A stretch of DNA of 64,000 bases, taken from the NCBI GenBank assembly GCA_016649875.1, contig JAENWW010000002.1, forward strand, positions 84,851 through 148,850. The letters are read 5' to 3'. The DNA is from Coriobacteriia bacterium. Its GTDB lineage: Bacteria > Actinomycetota > Coriobacteriia > WRKU01 > JAENWW01. Positions 4,938 through 38,860 of the stretch are shown piece by piece (within the stretch, counting starts at the first letter, position 1; every line of letters starts with the position of its first letter). The notes beneath the pieces are model-generated. The model was not told where the DNA came from, made no database searches, and was given only the letters and a program-made list of their open reading frames with translations. The translations under genes and the position numbers were made by a program.

Positions 4938-6821
4938 ATGAAGCGCAAAAAGACATTTTCATTCTTAATCGCCGCGGCCATATTGGCTCTGCTGTTCGTC
5001 GTCGTTTACTCAGTGCGCGATATCGTGCCGGAGAATCAACAGAAAGACGATCTCCTCGGAGTCGCGCGTTCTGCGGAGGCTACGCAATCCGATGCGGCCT
5101 CTTCGGTCGCATCCGCCGAGGCATCCTCCTCCGCGGCGAGTGATTCATCTAAAAGCACCGGGTTTATGACCACACTCGAAGAAAGTGACATCACTTCTGC
5201 GACGTTGTCTTCGGGTGACGGATTCTCCACGTGGATAGCACAGCCGACGACGGTGACGCTTCAGACACCGTCATGGGCGACGACGACGACATATCGTCTC
5301 GACGACGGCAACGATTCGAACTATGTGACACCGATTGCGTTCAACTCCGAAGGCAAACATTCGCTCTATTATCAATCGACGAGTGATCGACAAGTCGAAA
5401 CGCTTCAGGCGCAAGAGGTTTGGATTGATTTCACACCCCCGAGCATGCCGGGAAAAGTCGTTTTCAGCGAGCCTGCGAGTGATGGATTTTCATGTGCTTT
5501 CGGTGAGTCGACGGATGCAGTTTCAGGCATAAAAAGCTATGAAGTCACGGTCACTCCCGAAGGTGATGAGACCGCGGCAACCTTCAGCAAAGAATTCGAC
5601 GGCCCCAACGGCGTCGTGACCGGCCTGAAGGCGGGACGATATGTGCTCGGTATCACGGCGGTCGATTTTGCGGGAAATCGCTCCACGACGCAGACGATGC
5701 CGGTTGCAGTGGGGCTTCCCGCACCGATTCTTACTTGTAAGTTCGACGATTCGAATGTGGCAAACGATGTCGCGCTCGGTAAATGGATCACTTCGGATGC
5801 AGGTGTTCGTATGATTGTGTCGATCGAGTCGTCGGCTCCTGCGGTCACATTGAAAAATACGACGCTTGCGGGCTCGCTCGAGACAACGGAAGCGACTCAG
5901 ACTTCTTACGGTGCGATTCCGCTTGCTTTTATCGATGAGGGCAGCGGGAAAGTCGTGATTTCAGCGACGGACATGTACGGTAACGATTCAATAGAAACAA
6001 GTTTTACGCTCAATATCGATCACACCCCGCCCAGTCGAGTAAGTATCGTAAAGGCGAGCGTCGAACCTGCGGTATCCGATTCCTCTCAGAAAAATTTGAA
6101 GATTTCATGGCAAAGTTCGGGCGATGCGGTATCGGGCGTGAAAGGCTACCATATTCGTATTGTTCGGAAAGACTCGGGATTTTCGGGAACGCGCGAAATA
6201 TTCGTCATGGGCGCGAATTACACGGCGACGGATGTGGAAGACGGAACATATGCGGTGACCGTGACCGCCGAAGACAACGCAGGTCTCATCGGCACGGGGG
6301 TTACCGTCCAATCGAGCTTCGGTCGAAACGATGTTGCTGAAAACAGTTCAGGGGCATCCGCCGGTGCGAGCGCATCGAGCACAAAGAAAGATAGCAGTTC
6401 GGATTCTTCCGGCGGCGGTGCGAGCGCATCGAGCACAAAGAAAGATAGCAGTTCAGGGGCATCCGCCGGTGCGAGCGCATCGAGCACAAAGAAAGATAGC
6501 ATTTCGGATTCTTTCGGCGTCGGTACGAGCGCATCGAGCACAAAGAACGAGAGCAGTTCGGATTCTTCCGGCGGCGGTGCGAGCGCCTCTGCGAAAGCGA
6601 GCGCCGGCATCGCTGGACGGATTGCGACCACAACGCAGGCGATGATGAAAGCGATGTGGGACGCATTGCCCCAATCGCTTACAAAAGACTGGCGTCTGTG
6701 GATTATCGGTGCCCTCGGATTCTTATTGGCAGTCTCTTTGATGACGTATTATTTCGTGTCGAAACATCGATTTGCTCGTAAAGAAAAGCCTCAGCCGGTG
6801 TCTTCTTCCGTGTCGGCGTGA
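4938..6821 (+). CDS. Cell-surface protein with N-terminal signal/TM segment, Ig/fibronectin-like central region, Ser/Gly/Ala-rich tandem repeats and a C-terminal TM anchor
   Basis: N-terminus MKRKKTFSFLIAAAILALLFVVVYSV. Central beta-rich region. Repeats ASASSTKKDSSSDSSGGG x4-5. C-terminal WRLWIIGALGFLLAVSLMTYYFVSKHRFARKEK hydrophobic anchor plus a basic tail. No LPXTG motif seen. Confidence 0.6.
   Translation: MKRKKTFSFLIAAAILALLFVVVYSVRDIVPENQQKDDLLGVARSAEATQSDAASSVASAEASSSAASDSSKSTGFMTTLEESDITSATLSSGDGFSTWIAQPTTVTLQTPSWATTTTYRLDDGNDSNYVTPIAFNSEGKHSLYYQSTSDRQVETLQAQEVWIDFTPPSMPGKVVFSEPASDGFSCAFGESTDAVSGIKSYEVTVTPEGDETAATFSKEFDGPNGVVTGLKAGRYVLGITAVDFAGNRSTTQTMPVAVGLPAPILTCKFDDSNVANDVALGKWITSDAGVRMIVSIESSAPAVTLKNTTLAGSLETTEATQTSYGAIPLAFIDEGSGKVVISATDMYGNDSIETSFTLNIDHTPPSRVSIVKASVEPAVSDSSQKNLKISWQSSGDAVSGVKGYHIRIVRKDSGFSGTREIFVMGANYTATDVEDGTYAVTVTAEDNAGLIGTGVTVQSSFGRNDVAENSSGASAGASASSTKKDSSSDSSGGGASASSTKKDSSSGASAGASASSTKKDSISDSFGVGTSASSTKNESSSDSSGGGASASAKASAGIAGRIATTTQAMMKAMWDALPQSLTKDWRLWIIGALGFLLAVSLMTYYFVSKHRFARKEKPQPVSSSVSA
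6352..6596 (+). repeat. In-frame 54-nt tandem repeat array (4-5 imperfect copies) inside the surface-protein gene
   Basis: Direct repetition of gcgagcgcatcgagcacaaagaaagatagcagttcggattcttccggcggcggt with small variants. It produces many spurious antisense ORFs (6218..6674). Confidence 0.65.
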
Positions 6822-22214: not shown

Positions 22215-23081
22215 ATGAAATTCCTGACCCCTGATGCTCGTTTCGGTGCAACGCTCGAATCGTTACTCGATCGGCGTGAACGTGCGGCGATTCACGAGGG
22301 GTCGGCTTTCGGCGAACACGTGTTGTCTCGAAAGCTCATCTCGGGCCTTGCTCCTTATGTACACGCAGGTATCGAAGTGCTCGAGGTCGACCCTGGCCCC
22401 GGGCATCTGACGAAAGGGTTGCTCAAATGCGGTGCGCGAATCACCGCACTCGAGCCGTCTCCTCTGTTCGTCAGTGATTTGCAGGCGCTCGGTGACGGCG
22501 AGAACTTGACGATTTTCGAGGGATTTACCGAAAATCTTCCCGGGGATGCTCACTTCGATGTCGCTTTAGTGTCCTTTCCCGCACGGCGGGGGGCGGGGTT
22601 GCTTGCGCTCGTCAACGAAATCGCTCCTCTCGTAGCCGGAAAGGTACTCGTCGTTTTACCGGATGACGGCTCGCTTGATTGGGCGTATCTTTCGCGCGCC
22701 TGTGCTATCGAGGGTTTCCAAGTCCGCACCGAGTTTTACATCGAAAGTGAAAAGATATCGATTCATGATATGAAACGAGCCGTATTGTTGGTGATTGAAA
22801 AAGTCGGTCCTTATCGCGACTTGCGTCTCGACGGTGTGTGGGAACTCGAAGCTCGCACGATCCACGTTCCCTATCCCGTTCCTCGGGGGGCGGCGACTCG
22901 GCTTGTGCGCTACTTCGTCGCCGGAGGAGACAGGGCGGTACTCATCGCCACCGAACCGCTCGGGCTCAATCGCCTCTATGGTAATCTCCGCACCGCTGCG
23001 CATCGAATCGCGCGAGATGAAGTAACCGTTCGCAGAGTCGACGATGGAGTACAACTCATGCTTATTCCGAAGACGGATTGA
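22215..23081 (+). CDS. Hypothetical protein with N-terminal class I SAM-methyltransferase-like fold (putative)
   Basis: VLEVDPGPGHLTKGLL resembles SAM-binding motif I. ARITALEPSP and FDVALVSFP resemble post-I and motif II. The C-terminal ~130 aa has no recognisable motif. The gene sits between eno and ftsB. Confidence 0.4.
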   Translation: MKFLTPDARFGATLESLLDRRERAAIHEGSAFGEHVLSRKLISGLAPYVHAGIEVLEVDPGPGHLTKGLLKCGARITALEPSPLFVSDLQALGDGENLTIFEGFTENLPGDAHFDVALVSFPARRGAGLLALVNEIAPLVAGKVLVVLPDDGSLDWAYLSRACAIEGFQVRTEFYIESEKISIHDMKRAVLLVIEKVGPYRDLRLDGVWELEARTIHVPYPVPRGAATRLVRYFVAGGDRAVLIATEPLGLNRLYGNLRTAAHRIARDEVTVRRVDDGVQLMLIPKTD

Positions 23082-23084
23082 TCG

Positions 23085-23546
23085 ATGTCGGATACACCGC
23101 GTCGACGCGGTAAAACTAAAGCGGATTCAACTGCGCAAAAAGCGGGCATTTCATTTTTCGCGCGTAAACGCGTTTTGATTCCTTTGGCGAGCTTGGCGAT
23201 TCTTGCTGCAATCGGCTTCATGTATTATGCCCCTCTCAAAATTTTGTATCGGGAGGCTCGCCAGGAGCGTGTTTTGCGCGAGCAACTCGTGGCAGTTCAG
23301 CAGTATAACGTGACCGTAAAACAAGAAATTGTCTCGCTTGAAACCACGGAGGGCACAGAGGATTACGCCCGTAGCCAACTCGGACTGGTAAAAAAAGGCG
23401 ATCATATGGTGGTGGTTCTTCAGGGTGGGAAAAGAGTGACCGTTTCGGAACAATCACGCGAGAAGCAAATACAAGAACTTGAAGTTACGGCAAAACCCTT
23501 CGGCATATGGACTCCGTTTTTAGATGCACTCTTCCAGATTAAATAG
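23085..23546 (+). CDS. Septum formation initiator family protein (FtsB/DivIC-like)
   Basis: Basic N-terminus, a single TM (LIPLASLAILAAIGFMYYA), and a coiled-coil REQLVAVQQYNVTVKQEIVSLETTEG...ARSQLGLVKKGDHMVVV typical of DivIC/FtsB. Conserved position after eno. Confidence 0.6.
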   Translation: MSDTPRRRGKTKADSTAQKAGISFFARKRVLIPLASLAILAAIGFMYYAPLKILYREARQERVLREQLVAVQQYNVTVKQEIVSLETTEGTEDYARSQLGLVKKGDHMVVVLQGGKRVTVSEQSREKQIQELEVTAKPFGIWTPFLDALFQIK

Positions 23547-24033: not shown

Positions 24034-24932
24034 CTGCAATCGATATCGGCACCGTTACGGCGCGTCTGCTCATCGCCGATGTGTATGAGGGCGTGATCGG
24101 CGAGGTCGTTCGCGATATCGAAATCACACAACTCGGCTCACGCCTATCTCAGAGTGGGGCGTTAAGTGATACCGGTATGCAAAACGTGTATGAAGCAGTG
24201 CGGCGTTTTGTGGTGAAAATTTCAGAGAGCAAAGTCGACAAGATCATCTGCACCGCCACGAGTGCGGCTCGCGACGCACATAACGGCGAGGCGTTCAAAG
24301 TCGGCTTGCGCGCCTGCGGCATCGAGCCTCATATCATTTCCGGACAAACGGAGGCGAGACTCTCCTTTCGCGGTGCGACCTACCGGAGACGGGGCGACGA
24401 TCTCCTCGTCATCGATCCCGGCGGAGGTTCGACTGAATTCATTTTTCGAGCCGGTGAAAACGATGCCGTCATCGCACAGTCGATGGATATCGGCTCCCGT
24501 CGTCTCACCGATATGTTCATCCGTCATGACCCGGTATCACCGGAAGAACTTGCAGACATTCGGACTTACATCAAAAAAATCGCCGGTGAATATTTCTTGA
24601 AGTTGCCTCATGCTCCGCGCGAGCTCGTCGCGGTGGCGGGGACTGCGACCACGTTGGTGACCATGAAATATGAGATGGCGGACTATGATCCTCTTTTCGT
24701 TCACGGGAAGGTCATAACGCGCGAGGATTTATCGCATAGTATCGAGCAACTTTGCGCAAAAACGCAAAAAGAGCGCGAAGCTATGCCGGGGCTCGAACCG
24801 AAAAGAGCTTCGGTGATATTGGCCGGATGTCTGATAATAGAACAGGTATTGGAGATTTCGCGCCTTTCGATGCTTACCATTAGCGATTACGACATTCTCT
24901 ATGGCATAATTTTGAGTGTTGATTTATTCTAG
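24024..24932 (+). CDS. ppx: Exopolyphosphatase / guanosine pentaphosphate phosphohydrolase family (Ppx/GppA)
   Basis: MRIAAIDIGTVTARLLIADV (ASKHA fold N-terminus), then DPGGGSTEF and AGTATTL motifs. Start ATG at 24024 with an AAGGGGGAGA RBS. Confidence 0.8.
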   Translation: MRIAAIDIGTVTARLLIADVYEGVIGEVVRDIEITQLGSRLSQSGALSDTGMQNVYEAVRRFVVKISESKVDKIICTATSAARDAHNGEAFKVGLRACGIEPHIISGQTEARLSFRGATYRRRGDDLLVIDPGGGSTEFIFRAGENDAVIAQSMDIGSRRLTDMFIRHDPVSPEELADIRTYIKKIAGEYFLKLPHAPRELVAVAGTATTLVTMKYEMADYDPLFVHGKVITREDLSHSIEQLCAKTQKEREAMPGLEPKRASVILAGCLIIEQVLEISRLSMLTISDYDILYGIILSVDLF

Positions 24933-24992
24933 AAAAGTGTGAATTGCGTGGCGTGTGTGCGGATTGTCGTCCGCACGTCATGAAAACTGCAT

Positions 24993-25068
24993 GGGGGTGT
25001 ATTCCAACGGCAGAGAAAGAGGACTTAAAATCCTTACAGTGTGGGTTCGAATCCCACCACCCCTACCA
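24993..25068 (+). tRNA. tRNA with anticodon UAA (formally Leu-UUA-decoding) but class I geometry: 76 nt, 5-nt variable loop, CCA encoded
   Basis: Manual fold gives acceptor GGGGGTG/CACCCCT (G1-U72), U8, and a D-arm with GG. Anticodon stem GAGGA/TCCTT with loop CTTAAAA (anticodon TAA at 25026-25028). Variable loop ACAGT. T-arm GTGGG-TTCGAAT-CCCAC. A73 then CCA. Confidence 0.6.
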
Positions 25069-25153
25069 CTGCAAAACCACGTCGCTTGATCTTTTCGAGA
25101 TTGAGCGGCTGTTTTTCGAATCGATACCGTGAATTGCGGATATAATCAAAATC

Positions 25154-26218
25154 ATGGATGAAGCAAAAAAAATACGCCTGACTCAAATGTCGAGCAAAGC
25201 CGGTTGAGCAGCGAAGTGGGGTCCGGCGGATCTCAAAGCGGTGCTGGATAAAATCGATCCCGGACAGAGCGACAATCTCATGCTCGGGTTCGAAACAAGC
25301 GACGATGCGGCTGTCTACAAGCTAACCGACGACATCGCCGGCTTGATGACGATTGACTTTTTCACGCCGATTGTCGATGACCCCTATGACTTCGGCCGCA
25401 TCACCGCGGCCAACGCGCTTTCGGACATATACGCCATGGGAGGCAAACCGCTCACCGCGTTGAACATGATTGCGTTTCCGTGTTCTTTGGGTCCCGACAT
25501 CGTCGGCGAAGTGGTGCGGGGCGGCGCCGAGAAAGTCGCGGAAGCCGGTGCAGTCGTCGTCGGCGGACACACGATAGACGATAAAGAACCGAAGTACGGT
25601 CTCTCGGTCTTCGGAGTCGTGAATCCTCTCAAGGTGCTTCGTAACAAGGGAGCGCGTGAGGCTGACGCAATCGTCGTCACCAAGGCGCTTGGCACCGGTC
25701 TATGGGGAACAGCCATTAAGCGCGGTGTGGCCGACGAGACAACCGCCCACGAGGCAATCGAATCCATGGCCAAACTCAATAAATACGCATGCGAGGCTCT
25801 CGAGGGAGTCGATGTCCATGCCCTTACCGACATCACCGGGTTCGGACTCGCCGGTCATCTGCACGAAATGGCGGAGGCGAGCGGTGTGGCCGCCCACATT
25901 GAGACGGAGTGCATACCTCTACTCGAGCAGGTCTATGAACTTTCAACCGGGAATGTGGTTCCGGGTCGCACGGCGGATATCATCGCTTGGACCCGAGAGT
26001 TTTTATCCTGGTCGGCCGAAAGTTATTCTCAGGAGGAGCGCCGCACGTGGATGCAAATTCTCTGTGATCCTCAAACAAGCGGCGGGCTTATGATTGCAAT
26101 GCCTCAAAACCAGGTTGAAACGTATTACGACAATCTCATCCGTATCGATTCGGATGCGATATGCGCAGTCGTCGGAACGTTCGAGCACGGAACTCCGGGC
26201 AAAATCACCATTAATTAG
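25154..26218 (+). CDS. selD: Selenide, water dikinase SelD, selenocysteine-containing (in-frame TGA)
   Basis: The 25241..26218 ORF has SelD motifs (DDAAVYKL, FFTPIVDDPYDFGRITAANALSDIYAMGGKP). Reading upstream in frame gives MDEAKKIRLTQMSSKAG-TGA-AAKWGPADLKAVL. This matches the E. coli N-terminus [30 protein letters not shown], with Sec at the catalytic Cys17 position. The TGA is at about 25205-25207 and the ATG at about 25154 (+/-1 nt counting uncertainty). A hairpin GGGGTCC-GGC-GGATCTC begins 11 nt after the TGA. Confidence 0.85.
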
Positions 26219-26285
26219 CTCGAAATATTTCTCAAATATCAATTATTATTATAATAACTATCAGCACTTTCAAAAAGGAGGCGGT

Positions 26286-26624
26286 ATGAAAAAATTCATG
26301 GTGCTTGCAACAGACGCAATCGGCAAGGGGAACGATGAGCTCGGCGCGATTCTCACACGTGTTTTTTTGACTTGTTTGGGGCAGGGGGAAGAGGTGCCCG
26401 AAGTTCTCGCTCTCATGAATGCAGGCGTTAAGTTGGCGTGTGAGGGCTCCGAAGTCCTCGATGAGCTCAGGGCCGTTGAAGCGCGAGGCGTGAAGATAAA
26501 AGCCTGTGGAACGTGTCTCGACTTTTTCGGAATCCGTGAGCAACTGATGGTCGGTGAGGCGGGAAAGATGCCCGATACCGTCGCAGCGCTCATGACGGCC
26601 GAGGACTCGATTGTAATCTCTTAA
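26286..26624 (+). CDS. Small DsrE/DsrF-like (YedF C-terminal-domain-like) protein, putative sulfur/selenium relay protein
   Basis: 112 aa, MKKFMVLATDAIGKGNDELG...KACGTCLDFFGI. Good RBS AAAGGAGG 6 nt upstream of ATG 26286. Located between selD and selA. The 176-aa track ORF is an artefactual 5' extension through an AT-rich promoter region. Confidence 0.5.
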   Translation: MKKFMVLATDAIGKGNDELGAILTRVFLTCLGQGEEVPEVLALMNAGVKLACEGSEVLDELRAVEARGVKIKACGTCLDFFGIREQLMVGEAGKMPDTVAALMTAEDSIVIS

Positions 26625-26698
26625 AAGAGCGCCTCGTTTCGGGTCCGTTTGTTGAAGCCGCAGGCGCGATTCAGGGATACATACGCTACAATGCAAGT

Positions 26699-28126
26699 AT
26701 GAAAACAAACATCACCACACAAGACCTTTTCAGATCATTGCCCAAGGTCGATGAAGTTCTCTCCGCGGAACAAGTCGCCGCGCTGCTACCGGCGGTTCCG
26801 CGCTCGGTGGTGCTTACTTCGGCACGTACTGCGATAGAAAATATGCGATCTGCCATCGCCACCGGGTCGCGAGCAGAACCGGTGTCACTTGCCGAAGTGG
26901 TGGCGGATACCATCTCAAGTGCACATATTCGTATGCAACCTTCGTTGCGAAGAGTCATCAATGCAACGGGTATAATCATTCACACGAATTTGGGACGGAG
27001 CATTTTGGCCGATTCGGCCGCCGAAGCGGTGCAAGAGGTAGCCTCGCATTATTCGACATTGGAATACAACTATGAAAGAGGCGTCCGCGGCTCACGCCAT
27101 GATCATGTAGAGTCTCTTCTTTGCGAGCTCACCGGAGCTGAGGCGGCTCTTGCGGTCAACAACAATGCGGCGGCGGTCATGATGTGTATCGCTTGTTTTT
27201 CACGTGGCCGGGAGGCAATCGTTTCTCGGGGGCAACTCGTCGAAATCGGCGGTTCGTTTCGTGTTCCCGACATCATGGCGGAGTCCGGTGCGCACATGGT
27301 GGAAGTGGGAGCGACGAACAAAACGCATCTTAAAGACTACGAAAATGCGACCAATGAGAAAACAGGTTTGTATCTCAAGGTCCATTCGTCCAATTACCGC
27401 GTGATCGGATTCACTTCGGAAGTCGAACTCGCCGAGCTTGTGGACCTCGGTGCGAAACATGACATTCCGGTTATGGAGGACCAAGGGTCCGGTGTTTTGC
27501 TCGATTTGAGAAAGTACGGTTTGCCCTATGAACCGACGGTTTCCGAATCGGTGAAAGCAGGGGCGAGCATCGTGACTTTTTCGGGAGATAAGCTTCTCGG
27601 GGGTCCCCAGGCAGGTATCATCGTCGGCAAATCTGAGGCGATTGCCCGGTTGAAAGCCCACCCTCTCGCCCGCGTGCTTCGTCTCGATAAGATGACCTTG
27701 GCCGCGCTGGAAGCCACGTTGATGATTTATCGCGATGAAGACAGGGCGGTTGAAGAAATTCCCACGCTTCACGCTTTGACGATGGATCTCGAAGAGTGCA
27801 AGACACGTGCGAACGGACTCGCCGAGTCTCTCCTCGAAGCTTTGAGAAAAGAAGGTCTACTCGGCACTGTGGATATTTCCGTCGATGTCGATATCGCTCG
27901 CGCCGGCGGAGGGTCGCTGCCTTTGGCCGACATTCCGACCGCTGTACTCTCGTTGAGATTCGAAGACGTTTCCGCCACTGAAGTCGAGCGTCTCTTGCGT
28001 ATCGATTCGCCGGTTCCCATCGTCGCGCGTATAAACGATGAGAGATTGCTCATCGATCCGCGTACGTTCGTGTCTGATGATGCATCTGTCGTCGTGGAGC
28101 AACTATGCAAAATACTGCGCCGCTGA
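26699..28126 (+). CDS. selA: L-seryl-tRNA(Sec) selenium transferase (selenocysteine synthase)
   Basis: 475 aa. SLPKVDEVL N-terminal motif. RVINATGIIIHTNLGRSILADSAAEAV (compare E. coli INATGTVLHTNLGRA). PLP-lysine region FSGDKLLGGPQAGII. Confidence 0.9.
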   Translation: MKTNITTQDLFRSLPKVDEVLSAEQVAALLPAVPRSVVLTSARTAIENMRSAIATGSRAEPVSLAEVVADTISSAHIRMQPSLRRVINATGIIIHTNLGRSILADSAAEAVQEVASHYSTLEYNYERGVRGSRHDHVESLLCELTGAEAALAVNNNAAAVMMCIACFSRGREAIVSRGQLVEIGGSFRVPDIMAESGAHMVEVGATNKTHLKDYENATNEKTGLYLKVHSSNYRVIGFTSEVELAELVDLGAKHDIPVMEDQGSGVLLDLRKYGLPYEPTVSESVKAGASIVTFSGDKLLGGPQAGIIVGKSEAIARLKAHPLARVLRLDKMTLAALEATLMIYRDEDRAVEEIPTLHALTMDLEECKTRANGLAESLLEALRKEGLLGTVDISVDVDIARAGGGSLPLADIPTAVLSLRFEDVSATEVERLLRIDSPVPIVARINDERLLIDPRTFVSDDASVVVEQLCKILRR

Positions 28127-30039
28127 TTCTGGGCACCGCCGGTCATATCGACCACGGAAAATCAACTTTGATAAAGGCTTTGACGGGCGTGGACCCCGAT
28201 CGCCTCGCCGAAGAAAAAGAGCGAGGCATCACCATCGAACTCGGTTTCGCCGAGTTGGTGACACCGAAAGGTGTGCACTTCGGCGTCGTCGATGTTCCCG
28301 GACATGAGAAGTTCGTGCGCCACATGGTTTCCGGTGCCGCCGGAATCGATGTCGCATTGCTGGTAATCGCTGCCGATGACGGAATCATGGTGCAAACGCG
28401 TGAGCATGCGGCCATTCTCAATTTGCTCGGTGTGGAACATGCGGTCGTCGCATTGACTAAAATCGATAGGGTCGAGGCGGACTGGGCCGATCTCGTCGAA
28501 ATGGATATAGAAACCCTTTTAGAGGGAACTCTTCTCGAAGGGTCGCCCGTCGTTCGCGTTTCATCGACGACCGGACGCGGCATCGAGGCGTTGCTAAGCG
28601 CACTCGACGACACTGCCGAAAAGATTGCTGAGCGGGGACGGACAAACAATACGTCCGTCGCTCGGCTTCCGATCGATCGCGTTTTCACCATCTCGGGGGC
28701 CGGGACGGTCGTGACGGGCACGTTATGGTCGGGGGCGATAGTGCTCGGCGATGAGCTGGAAGAGGTGTCCGCACACAAGAAAGTCCGCGTGCGCGGTATC
28801 CAAGTCCATAACGTCGATGTAGAACAAGCGTTGGCCGGAATGCGTGTCGCACTCAATCTATCGAATATCGATAAGTCCGAGGTATCTCGGGGCGACATGC
28901 TTGCCACGCGGGGTGCGCTTCGCGAAACGAATATCTTCAACGCAATCTTTACCTACATCGGCTCCGAGTCCTCGGAAAGCGACACCAAGCCGTTGAAGAG
29001 CGGGACTCGTGTTCACGTCCATCATGGAACCGTCGCAACTGTCGGCCAGATTTTTTTCTTCGACGAAAAGTCGATCCGGCCGAACCGGAGCGTCTTCGCT
29101 CAGATACGTTTGGAAAAACCGATAGCTCCCGTTTATCTCGACCATTTCATCATTCGAAGCTTTTCACCGGTTTTCACCATCGGAGGAGGCGTCGTCCTCG
29201 ATGCGTCTCCTGCAAAGCGTACGCGAATCTCTGCCGATGAGCACGACTTGCTCGAGGCGCTTGCGAGTCGAGATTACGAAAAGGCCGCATGCGAACTCCT
29301 CGTCGTCAAAAAGGAACCCCTGAGCAGTGCGATGATTGCCGGGCTGCTCGGATGCGAGCGGAGCCGCGTTGCAACTGCGCTCAATACTTCGAACGCAGCG
29401 CGCATCAAAGTCGCCAAAGAGACGCTGTTCGTCGATCCTCTCGTATACGACCATGTCGCCGCAGCGATAAAGACCGAGCTTCTCGCGCTCTACGACAGGT
29501 ATCCTTCTGAGCATGCTTTCTCCCTTCCGATGCTCAAAGACCGAGTCGATACGCGGATGACACCGGAGGTTTTTGCGGCATTCGCCGAAATCGCCGCCGA
29601 AGCGCCGGAAATCGAACTTGTCGCCGGTCGAATCAGCCATTCCGGGGCCGCGTCGAATATCCATGCGCTCGAAGATGAGATTGCACGACAGGCGCTCGCT
29701 CGTATCGGGCACCGGGGGTTGGAAGTCGAAACGACCGCTGAACTGGCGAGAGCGCTGGGGGCGGATTCAAAGTTCGTCGGTCGCATTCTCGGACGAATCG
29801 CCTCCGAAGGGGGACTCATCCGCCTCGCGGGGGATTTGCATTTTTTGCCCGGAGATGTCTCAAAAGCTGAAGAAATCGTGAAGAAGGCACTGCGAGATGC
29901 GACTGCCGAGGCACCCGTATCTGCCTCGGAATTGTGCGCTGCAATGGGTTTGAGCAGGAAGTATGCCATTCCGCTTCTCGAGTACTTCGATTCGCAGGGT
30001 GTTACGCGTCGAATCGGCAATGGGAGAATTCTCGTTTGA
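28105..30039 (+). CDS. selB: Selenocysteine-specific translation elongation factor SelB
   Basis: 644 aa. GTPase N-terminus ILGTAGHIDHGKSTLIKALTG, DVPGHEKF, NKID. Long C-terminal winged-helix extension as in SelB. Overlaps selA by 22 nt. Confidence 0.9.
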   Translation: MQNTAPLILGTAGHIDHGKSTLIKALTGVDPDRLAEEKERGITIELGFAELVTPKGVHFGVVDVPGHEKFVRHMVSGAAGIDVALLVIAADDGIMVQTREHAAILNLLGVEHAVVALTKIDRVEADWADLVEMDIETLLEGTLLEGSPVVRVSSTTGRGIEALLSALDDTAEKIAERGRTNNTSVARLPIDRVFTISGAGTVVTGTLWSGAIVLGDELEEVSAHKKVRVRGIQVHNVDVEQALAGMRVALNLSNIDKSEVSRGDMLATRGALRETNIFNAIFTYIGSESSESDTKPLKSGTRVHVHHGTVATVGQIFFFDEKSIRPNRSVFAQIRLEKPIAPVYLDHFIIRSFSPVFTIGGGVVLDASPAKRTRISADEHDLLEALASRDYEKAACELLVVKKEPLSSAMIAGLLGCERSRVATALNTSNAARIKVAKETLFVDPLVYDHVAAAIKTELLALYDRYPSEHAFSLPMLKDRVDTRMTPEVFAAFAEIAAEAPEIELVAGRISHSGAASNIHALEDEIARQALARIGHRGLEVETTAELARALGADSKFVGRILGRIASEGGLIRLAGDLHFLPGDVSKAEEIVKKALRDATAEAPVSASELCAAMGLSRKYAIPLLEYFDSQGVTRRIGNGRILV

Positions 30040-30082
30040 CAATGGGCGTGATTATTCCCACAATGGTAAAGCTTGTAAACTC

Positions 30083-30179
30083 GGAGCCGGATTCGTCCTG
30101 GTGGGCGACGCGGCCTTCAAAGCCGTCGTGAGGGGTGAAGAACTTCTCGGGTGTGTTCGATTCGCACACGGTTCCGCCA
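30083..30179 (+). tRNA. selC: tRNA-Sec (anticodon UCA)
   Basis: 97 nt, GGAGCCGGATTCGTCCTGGTGGGCGACGCGGCCTTCAAAGCCGT...TGTGTTCGATTCGCACACGGTTCCGCCA. 6-bp D-stem TCGTCC/GGGCGA with a 4-nt D-loop TGGT (the Sec hallmark). Anticodon loop CTTCAAA. Long variable arm. T-loop TTCGATT. G73 then CCA. Lies 44 nt after the selB stop. Confidence 0.8.
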
Positions 30180-36692: not shown

Positions 36693-36763
36693 CGTTTTCA
36701 TCATATGATCCAACTTGAGACTCGAGCATGATACACTGACGCCTGCAAAAGGAGATTTTGTGT

Positions 36764-37741
36764 ATGAATGTAATTAAACACGGCTCACGCGGGTCGGCGG
36801 TTGAAGACATACAACGTAGGCTGATATACGTGGGATATTCGCTCGATACAACAGGCGTCGACGGTGTTTTCTTAAATGACACCGAGAAGACGCTCATGAA
36901 ATTTCAGCTTGCAATGGGTCTCGAAGCGACGGGCGAAGTCGATTCGTGCACATGGTCGATGCTCGTCGATTCGACATTTGCATTCGGGGATCGCATGTTG
37001 TATCTGCGCTATCCTTTGTTTCACGGACGGGATGTCGAAATTCTTCAAGTCGCGCTTAACAGTCTCGGCTTTACGTGCGGAGATGTCGACGGCATATTCG
37101 GAACCTATACCGAACGGGCGGTCATAGAGTTGCAATCCAACATGGGCCTTCCCGCCGACGGCGTCGTGGGGCGTGAGACATTTTCCACGCTCAACAGCCT
37201 TAAGCATATGTGGGAAGGCAAGAAGGTCGTATCCCATTCATCGGCGCAGGCGACATCGACTCATCGAAATAAAGTTTTAGCGCATCTGGCGCTCGTCATC
37301 ACGGCACAGGACCCGATGTCGTATCAAGTCGCTCGACGGATTAAAAACCTCGCGCAAGCGTCCTATGAGGATGCGAGTGTCACGACGATATGGGGAGAGT
37401 CGGTATCCTCAATCGGACCTGCGAAAGAGACGTACGAAAACCACGTCGCTTTCACCTTATATGAAGAGGACTCATCGCAGCCGACGACGGCCATTTCTTC
37501 GGTTGTACAGACCGGTTCTTCGGTCAAACTCGATTTGCAACTGGTGGAACTCGGGGAGCGAGAAGATGCCCTTATGGCATCGATTACCCCTCTAGTTGAA
37601 AAAGACCCATGTGGAAGTTTTGTGATTAAAATTCCTGCGAATACACTCGGTCATGGCTCTAAGCAGGGCTTTCAAAATATCGCCGTCTTGATACTGGACG
37701 CGGTGTGTGGCGCGTACGGTGATATTGACCGTGCAATTTGA
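36764..37741 (+). CDS. Peptidoglycan-binding domain protein (two PG_binding_1 repeats) with C-terminal domain of unknown function
   Basis: Two repeats of the ...GSRGSAVEDIQRRL...DGVFLNDTEKTLMKFQLAMGL... pattern, typical of putative peptidoglycan-binding domains. ATG at 36764 with an AAAAGGAG RBS 9 nt upstream. Confidence 0.6.
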   Translation: MNVIKHGSRGSAVEDIQRRLIYVGYSLDTTGVDGVFLNDTEKTLMKFQLAMGLEATGEVDSCTWSMLVDSTFAFGDRMLYLRYPLFHGRDVEILQVALNSLGFTCGDVDGIFGTYTERAVIELQSNMGLPADGVVGRETFSTLNSLKHMWEGKKVVSHSSAQATSTHRNKVLAHLALVITAQDPMSYQVARRIKNLAQASYEDASVTTIWGESVSSIGPAKETYENHVAFTLYEEDSSQPTTAISSVVQTGSSVKLDLQLVELGEREDALMASITPLVEKDPCGSFVIKIPANTLGHGSKQGFQNIAVLILDAVCGAYGDIDRAI

Positions 37742-37813
37742 TACAATGTAAAAGCCGGCTCGGTTCTTGGGGCTACGGTGGAAATTAACCTATGTCAGGA
37801 GCTTATTCTGAAT

Positions 37814-38860
37814 ATGAAAAAGGTCATATCATTTATCGGAGCGTGTGCCATCGGTGTCCTGGCGTTCGGTGCCATGGGAACGAGTCTTTCCGGGGCGATT
37901 CCGGCCACCAAACTCCAAGAGGTCAAAGTCATCAAGGCACAAGTGGATGCGCTTGATACGAGGGTTGAAATTGCTTCCGAAAATTATAACGCAGCATCGG
38001 TTAATTACAATAAAGCCGTCGCGAAGCGTGTAACGGCCCAGGCCAAGCTCACCAAAACCAAAAAACGTCTCGATGTCGTCCAAGTCCATCTCGACGACCG
38101 GGCAAAATCCATGTACCGCCAAGGATCGGCGGGATTTGTCGAGGTGCTGTTCGGTGCCGAGAGTTTCGATGATTTCGCTTCCGTTTGGGGTATCTTGAAC
38201 AACATGAACGAGGATGACGCCAAGTCGGCACAGGAGCTCAAGCAACTCAAAGCGGAAATGGTCTCTTTGACCGATCAGCTCAAGGCGGAGGAAAAAACTG
38301 CTGCGGCCGCTCAGGCGACCATGAAAAATAATAAAGACAGCATCGAGGCACAACTCGCTGAGCGTACGTCGATGCTCAAAGGTGTCCAAGCCGAGGTCGA
38401 CGCGCTGGATCAAGCTGAAGCGGCGGCGGCGCTAAGCGCTGCTGCGGCCTCAGAAAGTTCCGGCGGCGGTTCTTCGGGTGGGGGCAGAACGTTCCCGTCT
38501 CCCACGAGAGCACCGAGAAGCCAAGTCGTCGCCATCGCAAAACGCTACCTGGGAGCTCCTTATAAATGGGGGGAGGACGGTTCGAATTCATTCGATTGCT
38601 CAGGATTGACGAGTTTCGTGTATCGTCAAGTGGGAGTGTCGTTGCCGCATAGCTCACGTGCGCAAATCAACGCACGTGGCACTCAGCGAGTGAGCCGTGC
38701 CGATCTTGCACCGGGTGACCTCGTGTTCTTCCACAGCCCGATCAGCCATGTGGGAATTTACATCGGTGGGGGACGCATGATTGAAGCACCGCATCACGGT
38801 GCCCGTGTGAGAATCGCATCGATAAGCGGTCGTGGTTACGTCGGAGCCTGTCGTCCATAA
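37814..38860 (+). CDS. NlpC/P60 family peptidoglycan endopeptidase with N-terminal signal peptide and long coiled-coil (RipA/PcsB-like)
   Basis: Signal MKKVISFIGACAIGVLAFGAMG. About 200 aa of coiled coil. C-terminal NlpC/P60 catalytic motifs DCSGLTSFVY (Cys) and HVGIYIGGGRMIEAPHHG (His). Confidence 0.75.
   Translation: MKKVISFIGACAIGVLAFGAMGTSLSGAIPATKLQEVKVIKAQVDALDTRVEIASENYNAASVNYNKAVAKRVTAQAKLTKTKKRLDVVQVHLDDRAKSMYRQGSAGFVEVLFGAESFDDFASVWGILNNMNEDDAKSAQELKQLKAEMVSLTDQLKAEEKTAAAAQATMKNNKDSIEAQLAERTSMLKGVQAEVDALDQAEAAAALSAAAASESSGGGSSGGGRTFPSPTRAPRSQVVAIAKRYLGAPYKWGEDGSNSFDCSGLTSFVYRQVGVSLPHSSRAQINARGTQRVSRADLAPGDLVFFHSPISHVGIYIGGGRMIEAPHHGARVRIASISGRGYVGACRP

Follow-up and report, generated by a model that had tools for sequence, protein, structure and literature searches.

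A selD gene with an in-frame UGA codon and a downstream SECIS-like hairpin in an uncultured Coriobacteriia lineage

The selD gene found on a 64,000-nucleotide (nt) stretch of DNA from a Coriobacteriia bacterium (assembly GCA_016649875.1, contig JAENWW010000002.1, positions 84,851 to 148,850 of the forward strand; this whole stretch is called the window below) raises the question of whether a UGA codon near its 5′ end stops translation or is read as selenocysteine (Sec), in which case SelD would itself be a selenoprotein. From sequence comparison and RNA folding, we conclude that the UGA is very probably decoded as Sec by way of a downstream hairpin of the selenocysteine insertion sequence (SECIS) type.

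The selD reading frame and its internal UGA

The reading frame is defined by the following features:

25154..26218, + strand: complete selD coding sequence, 354 codons in one frame with a single internal TGA, predicted Sec at codon 18
25205..25207, + strand: the in-frame UGA, predicted Sec18 codon, aligned with E. coli Cys17 and TGA in 76 of 79 loci
25241..25243, + strand: GTG inside selD, taken as the start by a stop-to-stop open reading frame (ORF) finder and not the real start; it is Val30 in the conserved SelD N-terminus

The frame runs from an ATG at 25154-25156 through the TGA at 25205-25207 (codon 18) to a TAG at 26216-26218, with no further in-frame stop, and its translation reads MDEAKKIRLTQMSSKAG, then the TGA, then AAKWGPADLKAVL..., the part downstream of the TGA continuing as AAKWGPADLKAVLDKID. 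Since a TGA at 25130-25132 in the same frame bounds it on the 5′ side, 25154 is the first canonical start. An earlier note on this DNA, made from the letters alone, had proposed a continuous ATG..TGA..GTG frame carrying an in-frame UGA in SelD, and both its coordinates and its peptide proved exact, with one frame and no frameshift across 25154-26218. The note had also expected standard gene callers to truncate the gene at 25241; this held for the mechanical ORF finder, the one kind of caller examined, whose list gives selD only as 25241..26218 with the GTG start. An exact look-up of the resulting 325-residue truncated product in public gene calls returned no record.

For profile and structure searches, the UGA was replaced by Cys in the 354-residue protein. 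The product matched the selD equivalog model TIGR00476 of NCBIfam with 369 bits (cutoff 125), residues 8-320 covering profile positions 1-310 of 311, and NF002098 with 328 bits against 299, while Pfam identified AIRS (PF00586, 1.6e-27) and AIRS_C (PF02769, 6e-15). Because residue 8 matches the first position of the TIGR00476 profile, the stretch 5′ of the UGA is part of the SelD family model, in agreement with the earlier suggestion that this N-terminal extension belongs to SelD. The solved structures matched were those of E. coli SelD (3u0o, E = 1e-66) and Aquifex aeolicus SelD (2yye/2zod, E = 1.5e-60). The alignment to 3u0o is ungapped in this region (query residue 5 corresponds to chain residue 4), and it places codon 18 on E. 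coli Cys17, the catalytic Cys position at which the UGA had been predicted to lie, and Lys21 on Lys20. The product thus has the Gly-rich N-terminal loop with Sec or Cys and a Lys three residues further on. Cys17 and Lys20 are essential in E. coli SelD, and a truncated SelD would lose the equivalents of both.

To place this codon among its relatives, one genome per GTDB species was scanned; 467 loci were returned and the best 80 were used. About 50 at the head of the ranking are metagenome-assembled genomes of Coriobacteriia, Coriobacteriales or "Actinomycetota", so an uncultured member of this class is the most likely source of the window. No species representative searched exceeds 73% identity to the selD examined here. 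As the most similar of the 467, the 80 loci are phylogenetically related and over-represent the same Sec-type clade. The N-terminus is present in 79 of them, and at the column of codon 18 these have TGA in 76 cases and TGT or TGC in the remaining three. Most of the Sec-type set is from Coriobacteriia, with further members in Marinimicrobia, Gemmatimonadota, Chloroflexota, Nitrospinota and clostridial genomes, and the base that follows the UGA is G in all 77 Sec-type genes.

The sequence around this column is conserved as protein on both flanks. In each of the 30 closest relatives checked, a start codon lies 14-21 codons 5′ of the UGA, and the residues between the two follow the pattern [IV]-[RK]-L-T-x-[ML]-[ST]-[ST]-K-[AS]-G. 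Protein conservation extends over 10-17 codons 5′ of the UGA with variable synonymous sites, the wobble position of the invariant Thr10 having an entropy of 1.87 bits. The region 5′ of the UGA, being protein-conserved with free synonymous sites, is therefore translated, and on this ground we exclude that the TGA is an error of sequencing, that the gene is a pseudogene, or that the UGA is a true stop with the protein starting further downstream.

If the UGA were a genuine stop, the gene would yield a 17-residue peptide or nothing, and a functional SelD would have to start at the GTG at 25241 without its N-terminal loop. The ORF finder's 25241..26218 agrees with this, as does the use of UGA as an ordinary stop elsewhere in the window, where TGA ends 13 of the 52 long non-overlapping ORFs, selA and selB among them. 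Against it, the protein so produced would lack the Gly-rich loop with the counterparts of Cys17 and Lys20 (essential in E. coli), SelD sequence is conserved 5′ of the UGA in 79 loci while synonymous sites vary, and the GTG corresponds to Val30 of the aligned family with no conserved status as a start codon. We regard a genuine stop as extremely improbable. The TGA stops elsewhere indicate that the window uses the standard code and that the selD UGA is a local exception; a reassignment of UGA was rejected on the same count of 13 of 52.

An error of sequencing or assembly, or a recent inactivation of a Cys codon that left a pseudogene, would require a single substitution, TGA being one step from TGC and TGT, and Cys codons are indeed found here in three relatives. 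The same TGA, however, occurs in 76 independent assemblies from several phyla, the 354 codons are otherwise undisrupted, an intact selA-selB-selC cluster lies alongside, and the bases around the codon are constrained at the RNA level (both described below). We give this explanation a virtually negligible chance, and hold to the reading of the UGA as a Sec codon.

The three Cys-type loci were compared at locus positions ~6037-6099. One of them (L076, TGC) retains most of the helix found downstream of the UGA in the Sec-type genes (GGGCC…GGAUCUC), resembling a fossil SECIS; in the other two (L072 and L079), the x-D-L peptide is now K-V-L and the helix is lost.

The hairpin downstream of the UGA

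The RNA features considered here are the following, hairpin positions being numbered from the U of the UGA as position 1:

25207..25245, + strand: full predicted SECIS-like hairpin, ~39 nt, beginning at the A of the UGA, minimum free energy (MFE) -20.2 kcal/mol
25217..25235, + strand: upper stem-loop of the hairpin, U13-A31 and G14-C30 through C20-G24, with the loop G21 G22 C23 at 25225-25227
25202..25204, + strand: Gly17 codon GGU, directly 5′ of the UGA, GGT in 56 of 56 Coriobacteriia and 70 of 77 Sec-type genes, with zero wobble entropy

Folding of 25205-25250 gave one dominant structure, which accounts for 58% of the ensemble with a free energy of -20.2 kcal/mol. Its lower helix joins 25207-25213 to 25239-25245 (A3-U41, G4-C40, C5-G39, A6-U38, C8-G36, G9-C35), with an internal loop between it and the upper helix. 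The earlier note had described a stem-loop of GGGGUCC (25218-25224), GGC (25225-25227) and GGAUCUC (25228-25234) starting 11 nt after the UGA. Its sequence was correct, as was its start at the 11th nt (the core spans 25218-25234, with 10 nt between the UGA and the first G); its size was understated, the hairpin being larger by the U13-A31 pair and by the lower helix that reaches back to the A of the UGA. The expectation that the region would fold into a SECIS-like structure at the position of a bacterial SECIS fits this stable hairpin, whose loop GG stands at +21/+22, compared with +22/+23 in the E. coli fdhF SECIS. Only one of 200 dinucleotide shuffles was as stable (z = -3.8).

The upper helix and loop hardly change across 56 Coriobacteriia-type genes, all of which have G21 and G22, and 75-77 of the 77 Sec-type selD genes retain pairs 16-28, 17-27, 18-26 and 19-25. 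We scanned synonymous sites over the whole gene in the same 56 genes, using the 76 columns in which a four-fold-degenerate amino acid is at least 90% conserved. Mean wobble entropy over these columns was 1.34 bits; it was at least 0.79 bits in 73 of them and zero in only three, namely Gly17 (listed above), Gly23 (GGT at 25220-25222 in 56 of 56), whose U18 pairs with A26, and Pro24 (CCG at 25223-25225 in 56 of 56), whose G21 is the first base of the loop. Wobble invariance that falls exactly on the hairpin and on the UGA context indicates selection at the RNA level there. The wobble U of Gly17 extends the base of the hairpin in some predicted folds, and its invariance may reflect such pairing or could instead reflect a codon-context requirement.

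Several observations weigh against a SECIS at this position, or against the strength of the case for one. The 80 loci are not phylogenetically independent, and the count of TGA codons among them is a measure of conservation that gives no evidence of independent origins. An Rfam search of 25100-25400 at E <= 10 returned no curated family, only miRNA and snoRNA models at chance level. The hairpin is without covariation support, the MFE structure of the window scoring no better than shuffles over the 56 aligned genes, and RNAalifold keeps only five invariant pairs on that alignment; the lower helix forms in most relatives, but its register shifts. With no variation in the upper stem and a lower helix that is out of register, the covariation tests speak neither for nor against the structure. 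Finally, the peptide W-G-P-x-D-L itself accounts for part of the stem, as the core helix still forms in 21% of random recodings that leave the protein sequence unchanged.

The last of these observations, together with the lack of compensatory stem changes in the Coriobacteriia set, would suit a hairpin that is a mere by-product of W-G-P-x-D-L with no function as RNA, recoding being directed by other signals. On the other side, Gly23 is GGT and Pro24 is CCG throughout the 56 genes in spite of window usages of 29% and 43%, respectively, while the 73 other four-fold sites vary. Moreover, the native sequence folds more stably than 98% of 2000 synonymous recodings drawn from the codon usage of the window (mean -12.4 ± 3.2 kcal/mol, z = -2.4), and a distant homologue (L063) preserves pair 18-26 by a two-sided change from U18-A26 to G-C, the single compensatory case in the wider set. 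We consider a by-product very improbable, and favor a hairpin that acts as the recoding signal for Sec.

Selenocysteine machinery and neighboring genes

Downstream of selD, the window carries these features:

26286..26624, + strand: yedF-like selenium-metabolism gene, TIGR03527 with 117 bits (cutoff 110) over profile positions 85-193 of 194; Pfam DsrE
26699..28126, + strand: selA, selenocysteine synthase, TIGR00474 with 588 bits; Pfam SelA
28105..30039, + strand: selB, Sec-specific elongation factor, TIGR00475 with 364 bits; Pfam SelB-wing_3 and Beta-barrel_SelB
30083..30179, + strand: selC, tRNA-Sec with anticodon UCA, found by ARAGORN and by Rfam RF01852 with 68 bits (gathering score 47)

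The genes selD, selA, selB and selC all lie on the + strand within 25154-30179, or ~5 kb; selB overlaps selA and carries the C-terminal winged-helix domain. With selA, selB and selC no more than 4 kb downstream, all the trans-acting factors for the selD UGA are encoded within 5 kb. The yedF-like gene between selD and selA comprises only the DsrE-like C-terminal half, the TusA-like N-terminal half being absent, and has its own strong AAAGGAGG ribosome-binding site. A search of the window for further selenoprotein genes, based on neighboring ORFs in one frame with a TGA between them, gave two pairs on the + strand. Both were rejected as unrelated neighbors: 22215-23081 and 23085-23546 are, by Pfam, a methyltransferase-like gene and DivIC, and 36758-37741 and 37778-38860 are a PG_binding_1 gene and NlpC/P60.

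The presence of this machinery bears on whether the UGA might be read through as something other than Sec, either Trp by a near-cognate tRNA or Cys carried on tRNA-Sec, with the hairpin serving as a general stimulator of read-through. Such a reading is compatible with a hairpin that lacks the bulged U and GGUC loop of fdhF and whose specific structure is unproven by covariation, and the first SelD molecules might need a bootstrap that does not use Sec. Set against this are the complete Sec machinery directly downstream, including a SelB with an RNA-binding winged-helix domain, the location of the codon at the catalytic Cys/Sec site, at which Trp would give no active enzyme, and the invariance of G21 and G22, which stand in the loop where fdhF has its guanines. 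We find read-through without Sec even less credible than a hairpin imposed by the peptide, and decoding as Sec remains the reading that we prefer.

We infer from the sequence that Sec is inserted, that SelB binds the hairpin and that the SelD enzyme is active, and the steps would be as follows. Translation would begin at the ATG at 25154. When the ribosome pauses at UGA18, the hairpin at 25207-25245, acting as a bacterial SECIS, would bring SelB·GTP·Sec-tRNA(Sec) to it, and Sec would be inserted instead of termination taking place. The Sec would sit in the Gly-rich N-terminal loop (S-K-A-G-U-A-A-K), at the position of Cys17, with the essential Lys three residues further on. The 354-residue SelD would then convert selenide and ATP to selenophosphate, AMP and Pi, and SelA, encoded 0.5 kb downstream, would use the selenophosphate in forming Sec-tRNA(Sec). 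Because SelD would in this way feed SelA with selenophosphate, its synthesis would depend on its own product, a dependence that is known for Sec-type SelD and for SPS2 (PMC4561486).

Upstream of selD, one further feature concerns its expression:

25141..25146, + strand: TATAAT box, 7 nt before the ATG and seen in the sequence, a possible promoter of a leaderless selD mRNA

The selD gene has no Shine-Dalgarno sequence here, and its closest relative (L001, at about 265-284) has the same TATAAT layout, while more distant relatives have GGAGG-type sites. This suggests that the selD mRNA may be leaderless in this lineage. A consensus promoter scan called no -35/-10 pair at the TATAAT site. Between selD and a tRNA gene upstream of it, an intrinsic-terminator-like hairpin of 13 pairs followed by a T-run occupies 25081-25119 on the + strand, so selD probably has its own promoter.

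It is conceivable, though we think it doubtful, that the 5′ end of selD forms a compact selenium-sensing translational switch, in which a leaderless mRNA, self-dependence, and the GGU codon as part of an extended recoding signal (through P-site codon/tRNA context or an extension of the SECIS base) would act together. If this were true, the GGU-containing recoding signal would fall outside the minimal SECIS model of E. coli.

The upstream tRNA gene, a tRNA-Leu(UAA) at 24993-25068 on the + strand, lies 86 nt 5′ of selD and directly after ppx. Its anticodon is UAA, but at 76 nt it has a class I shape, the variable region being a loop of 5 nt in place of the long arm. The stems show no disruption, and the gene still has A73, A14, A15/U48 and G18G19. 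With the same ppx-tRNA-Leu(UAA) synteny, at least 19 relatives among the Coriobacteriia have a normal class II tRNA of 87-91 nt. Short genes like it, annotated as tRNA-Leu, occur in 400 phage records, the best matches being Pseudomonas phage ZC03 (90.7% identity) and Prochlorococcus phage P-SSM7 (89%). A junction-spanning pattern of the short tRNA matches at least 120 metagenome contigs, and one metagenome contig (L103) has the same chromosomal arrangement of ppx and short tRNA. According to a 2023 review, tRNA-Leu has a long variable arm everywhere but in animal mitochondria, and E. coli LeuRS does not need the arm (PMC9976931). In the region 24932-25154, the gap between the ppx-adjacent tRNA-Leu(UAA) and selD is only 86 nt, compared with ~1.6-5.4 kb in relatives (L002-L053), which points to a locus that was rearranged or that lost genes beside the unusual tRNA. 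This short tRNA-Leu(UAA) is more unusual than the selD finding and merits a separate look.

Comparison with known Sec-type SelD and SECIS elements

Sec-type SelD with a downstream hairpin is already known and common in bacteria, and this locus is an ordinary member of that group. Haemophilus influenzae is among the bacteria that have a Sec-type SelD. Among bacterial selenoproteins, SelD and FdhA have the widest distribution (PMC5029168, PMC1794560), and Sec-type SelD has been listed in Clostridium difficile, Moorella, Rubrobacter and Symbiobacterium, the last two as actinobacterial (PMC1794560). For selD genes with a Sec codon, SECIS elements of the bacterial kind are on record (PMC4561486). 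Many organisms have a SelD that is a selenoprotein, and current selenoprotein pipelines handle the Sec type as routine (PMC12013277). The locus thus adds one more uncultured Coriobacteriia lineage with a selenoprotein SelD and opens no new question; what it does display is a UGA and hairpin kept almost unchanged across Coriobacteriia. For annotation, the naive call of 25241..26218 strips the catalytic N-terminal loop and hides the organism's use of Sec, the correct call being 25154..26218 with Sec at codon 18.

Among bacteria, SECIS elements vary, and what they have in common is chiefly a stem-loop with a conserved apical G (PMC1794560, PMC12013277, PMC9312934). We compared the selD hairpin with the SECIS of E. 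coli fdhF, whose sequence was located in fdhF of 5419 of 5426 complete E. coli genomes; it folds from A3 to U42 with the apical loop G22 G23 U24 C25. Both are hairpins of ~40 nt that begin at the A of the UGA, lie within the coding sequence and have the same overall shape, and their loop guanines are offset by a single position, the selD hairpin closing at A3-U41. The bulged U and the GGUC tetraloop of fdhF are absent from the selD hairpin, which instead has a perfect, GC-rich upper helix of 7-8 bp with a loop of 3-5 nt (GGC or CGGNN).

At the level of the protein, the nearest parallel is the Sec-type SelD of Aquifex aeolicus (2ZOD, 2YYE), which likewise belongs to TIGR00476 and has the N-terminal G-U-A-A-K; its chain reads SGCAAKVGPGDL where AGUAAKWGPADL stands here, and the chain SSGCAAKVGPGDL, with the motif GCAAK, aligns with KAGUAAKWGPADL. 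E. coli SelD (3U0O) has the same fold over residues 5-320, with DDAAVY, DFF-PIVD, N-A-SD-AMGG and TD-TGFGL conserved, but has Cys (GAGCGCK) where the UGA lies here (KAGUAAK), and the E. coli gene needs no SECIS. The SPS2 proteins of eukaryotes and archaea are orthologues with Sec at the homologous position, and their synthesis also depends on their own selenophosphate (PMC4561486). In contrast to the selD hairpin, which lies directly 3′ of the UGA and is predicted to be read by SelB, their SECIS is in an untranslated region and is served by other factors. Compared with the Sec-containing SelD of other bacteria, in which the UGA occupies the same codon and a hairpin follows directly within the coding sequence, nothing fundamental differs here.

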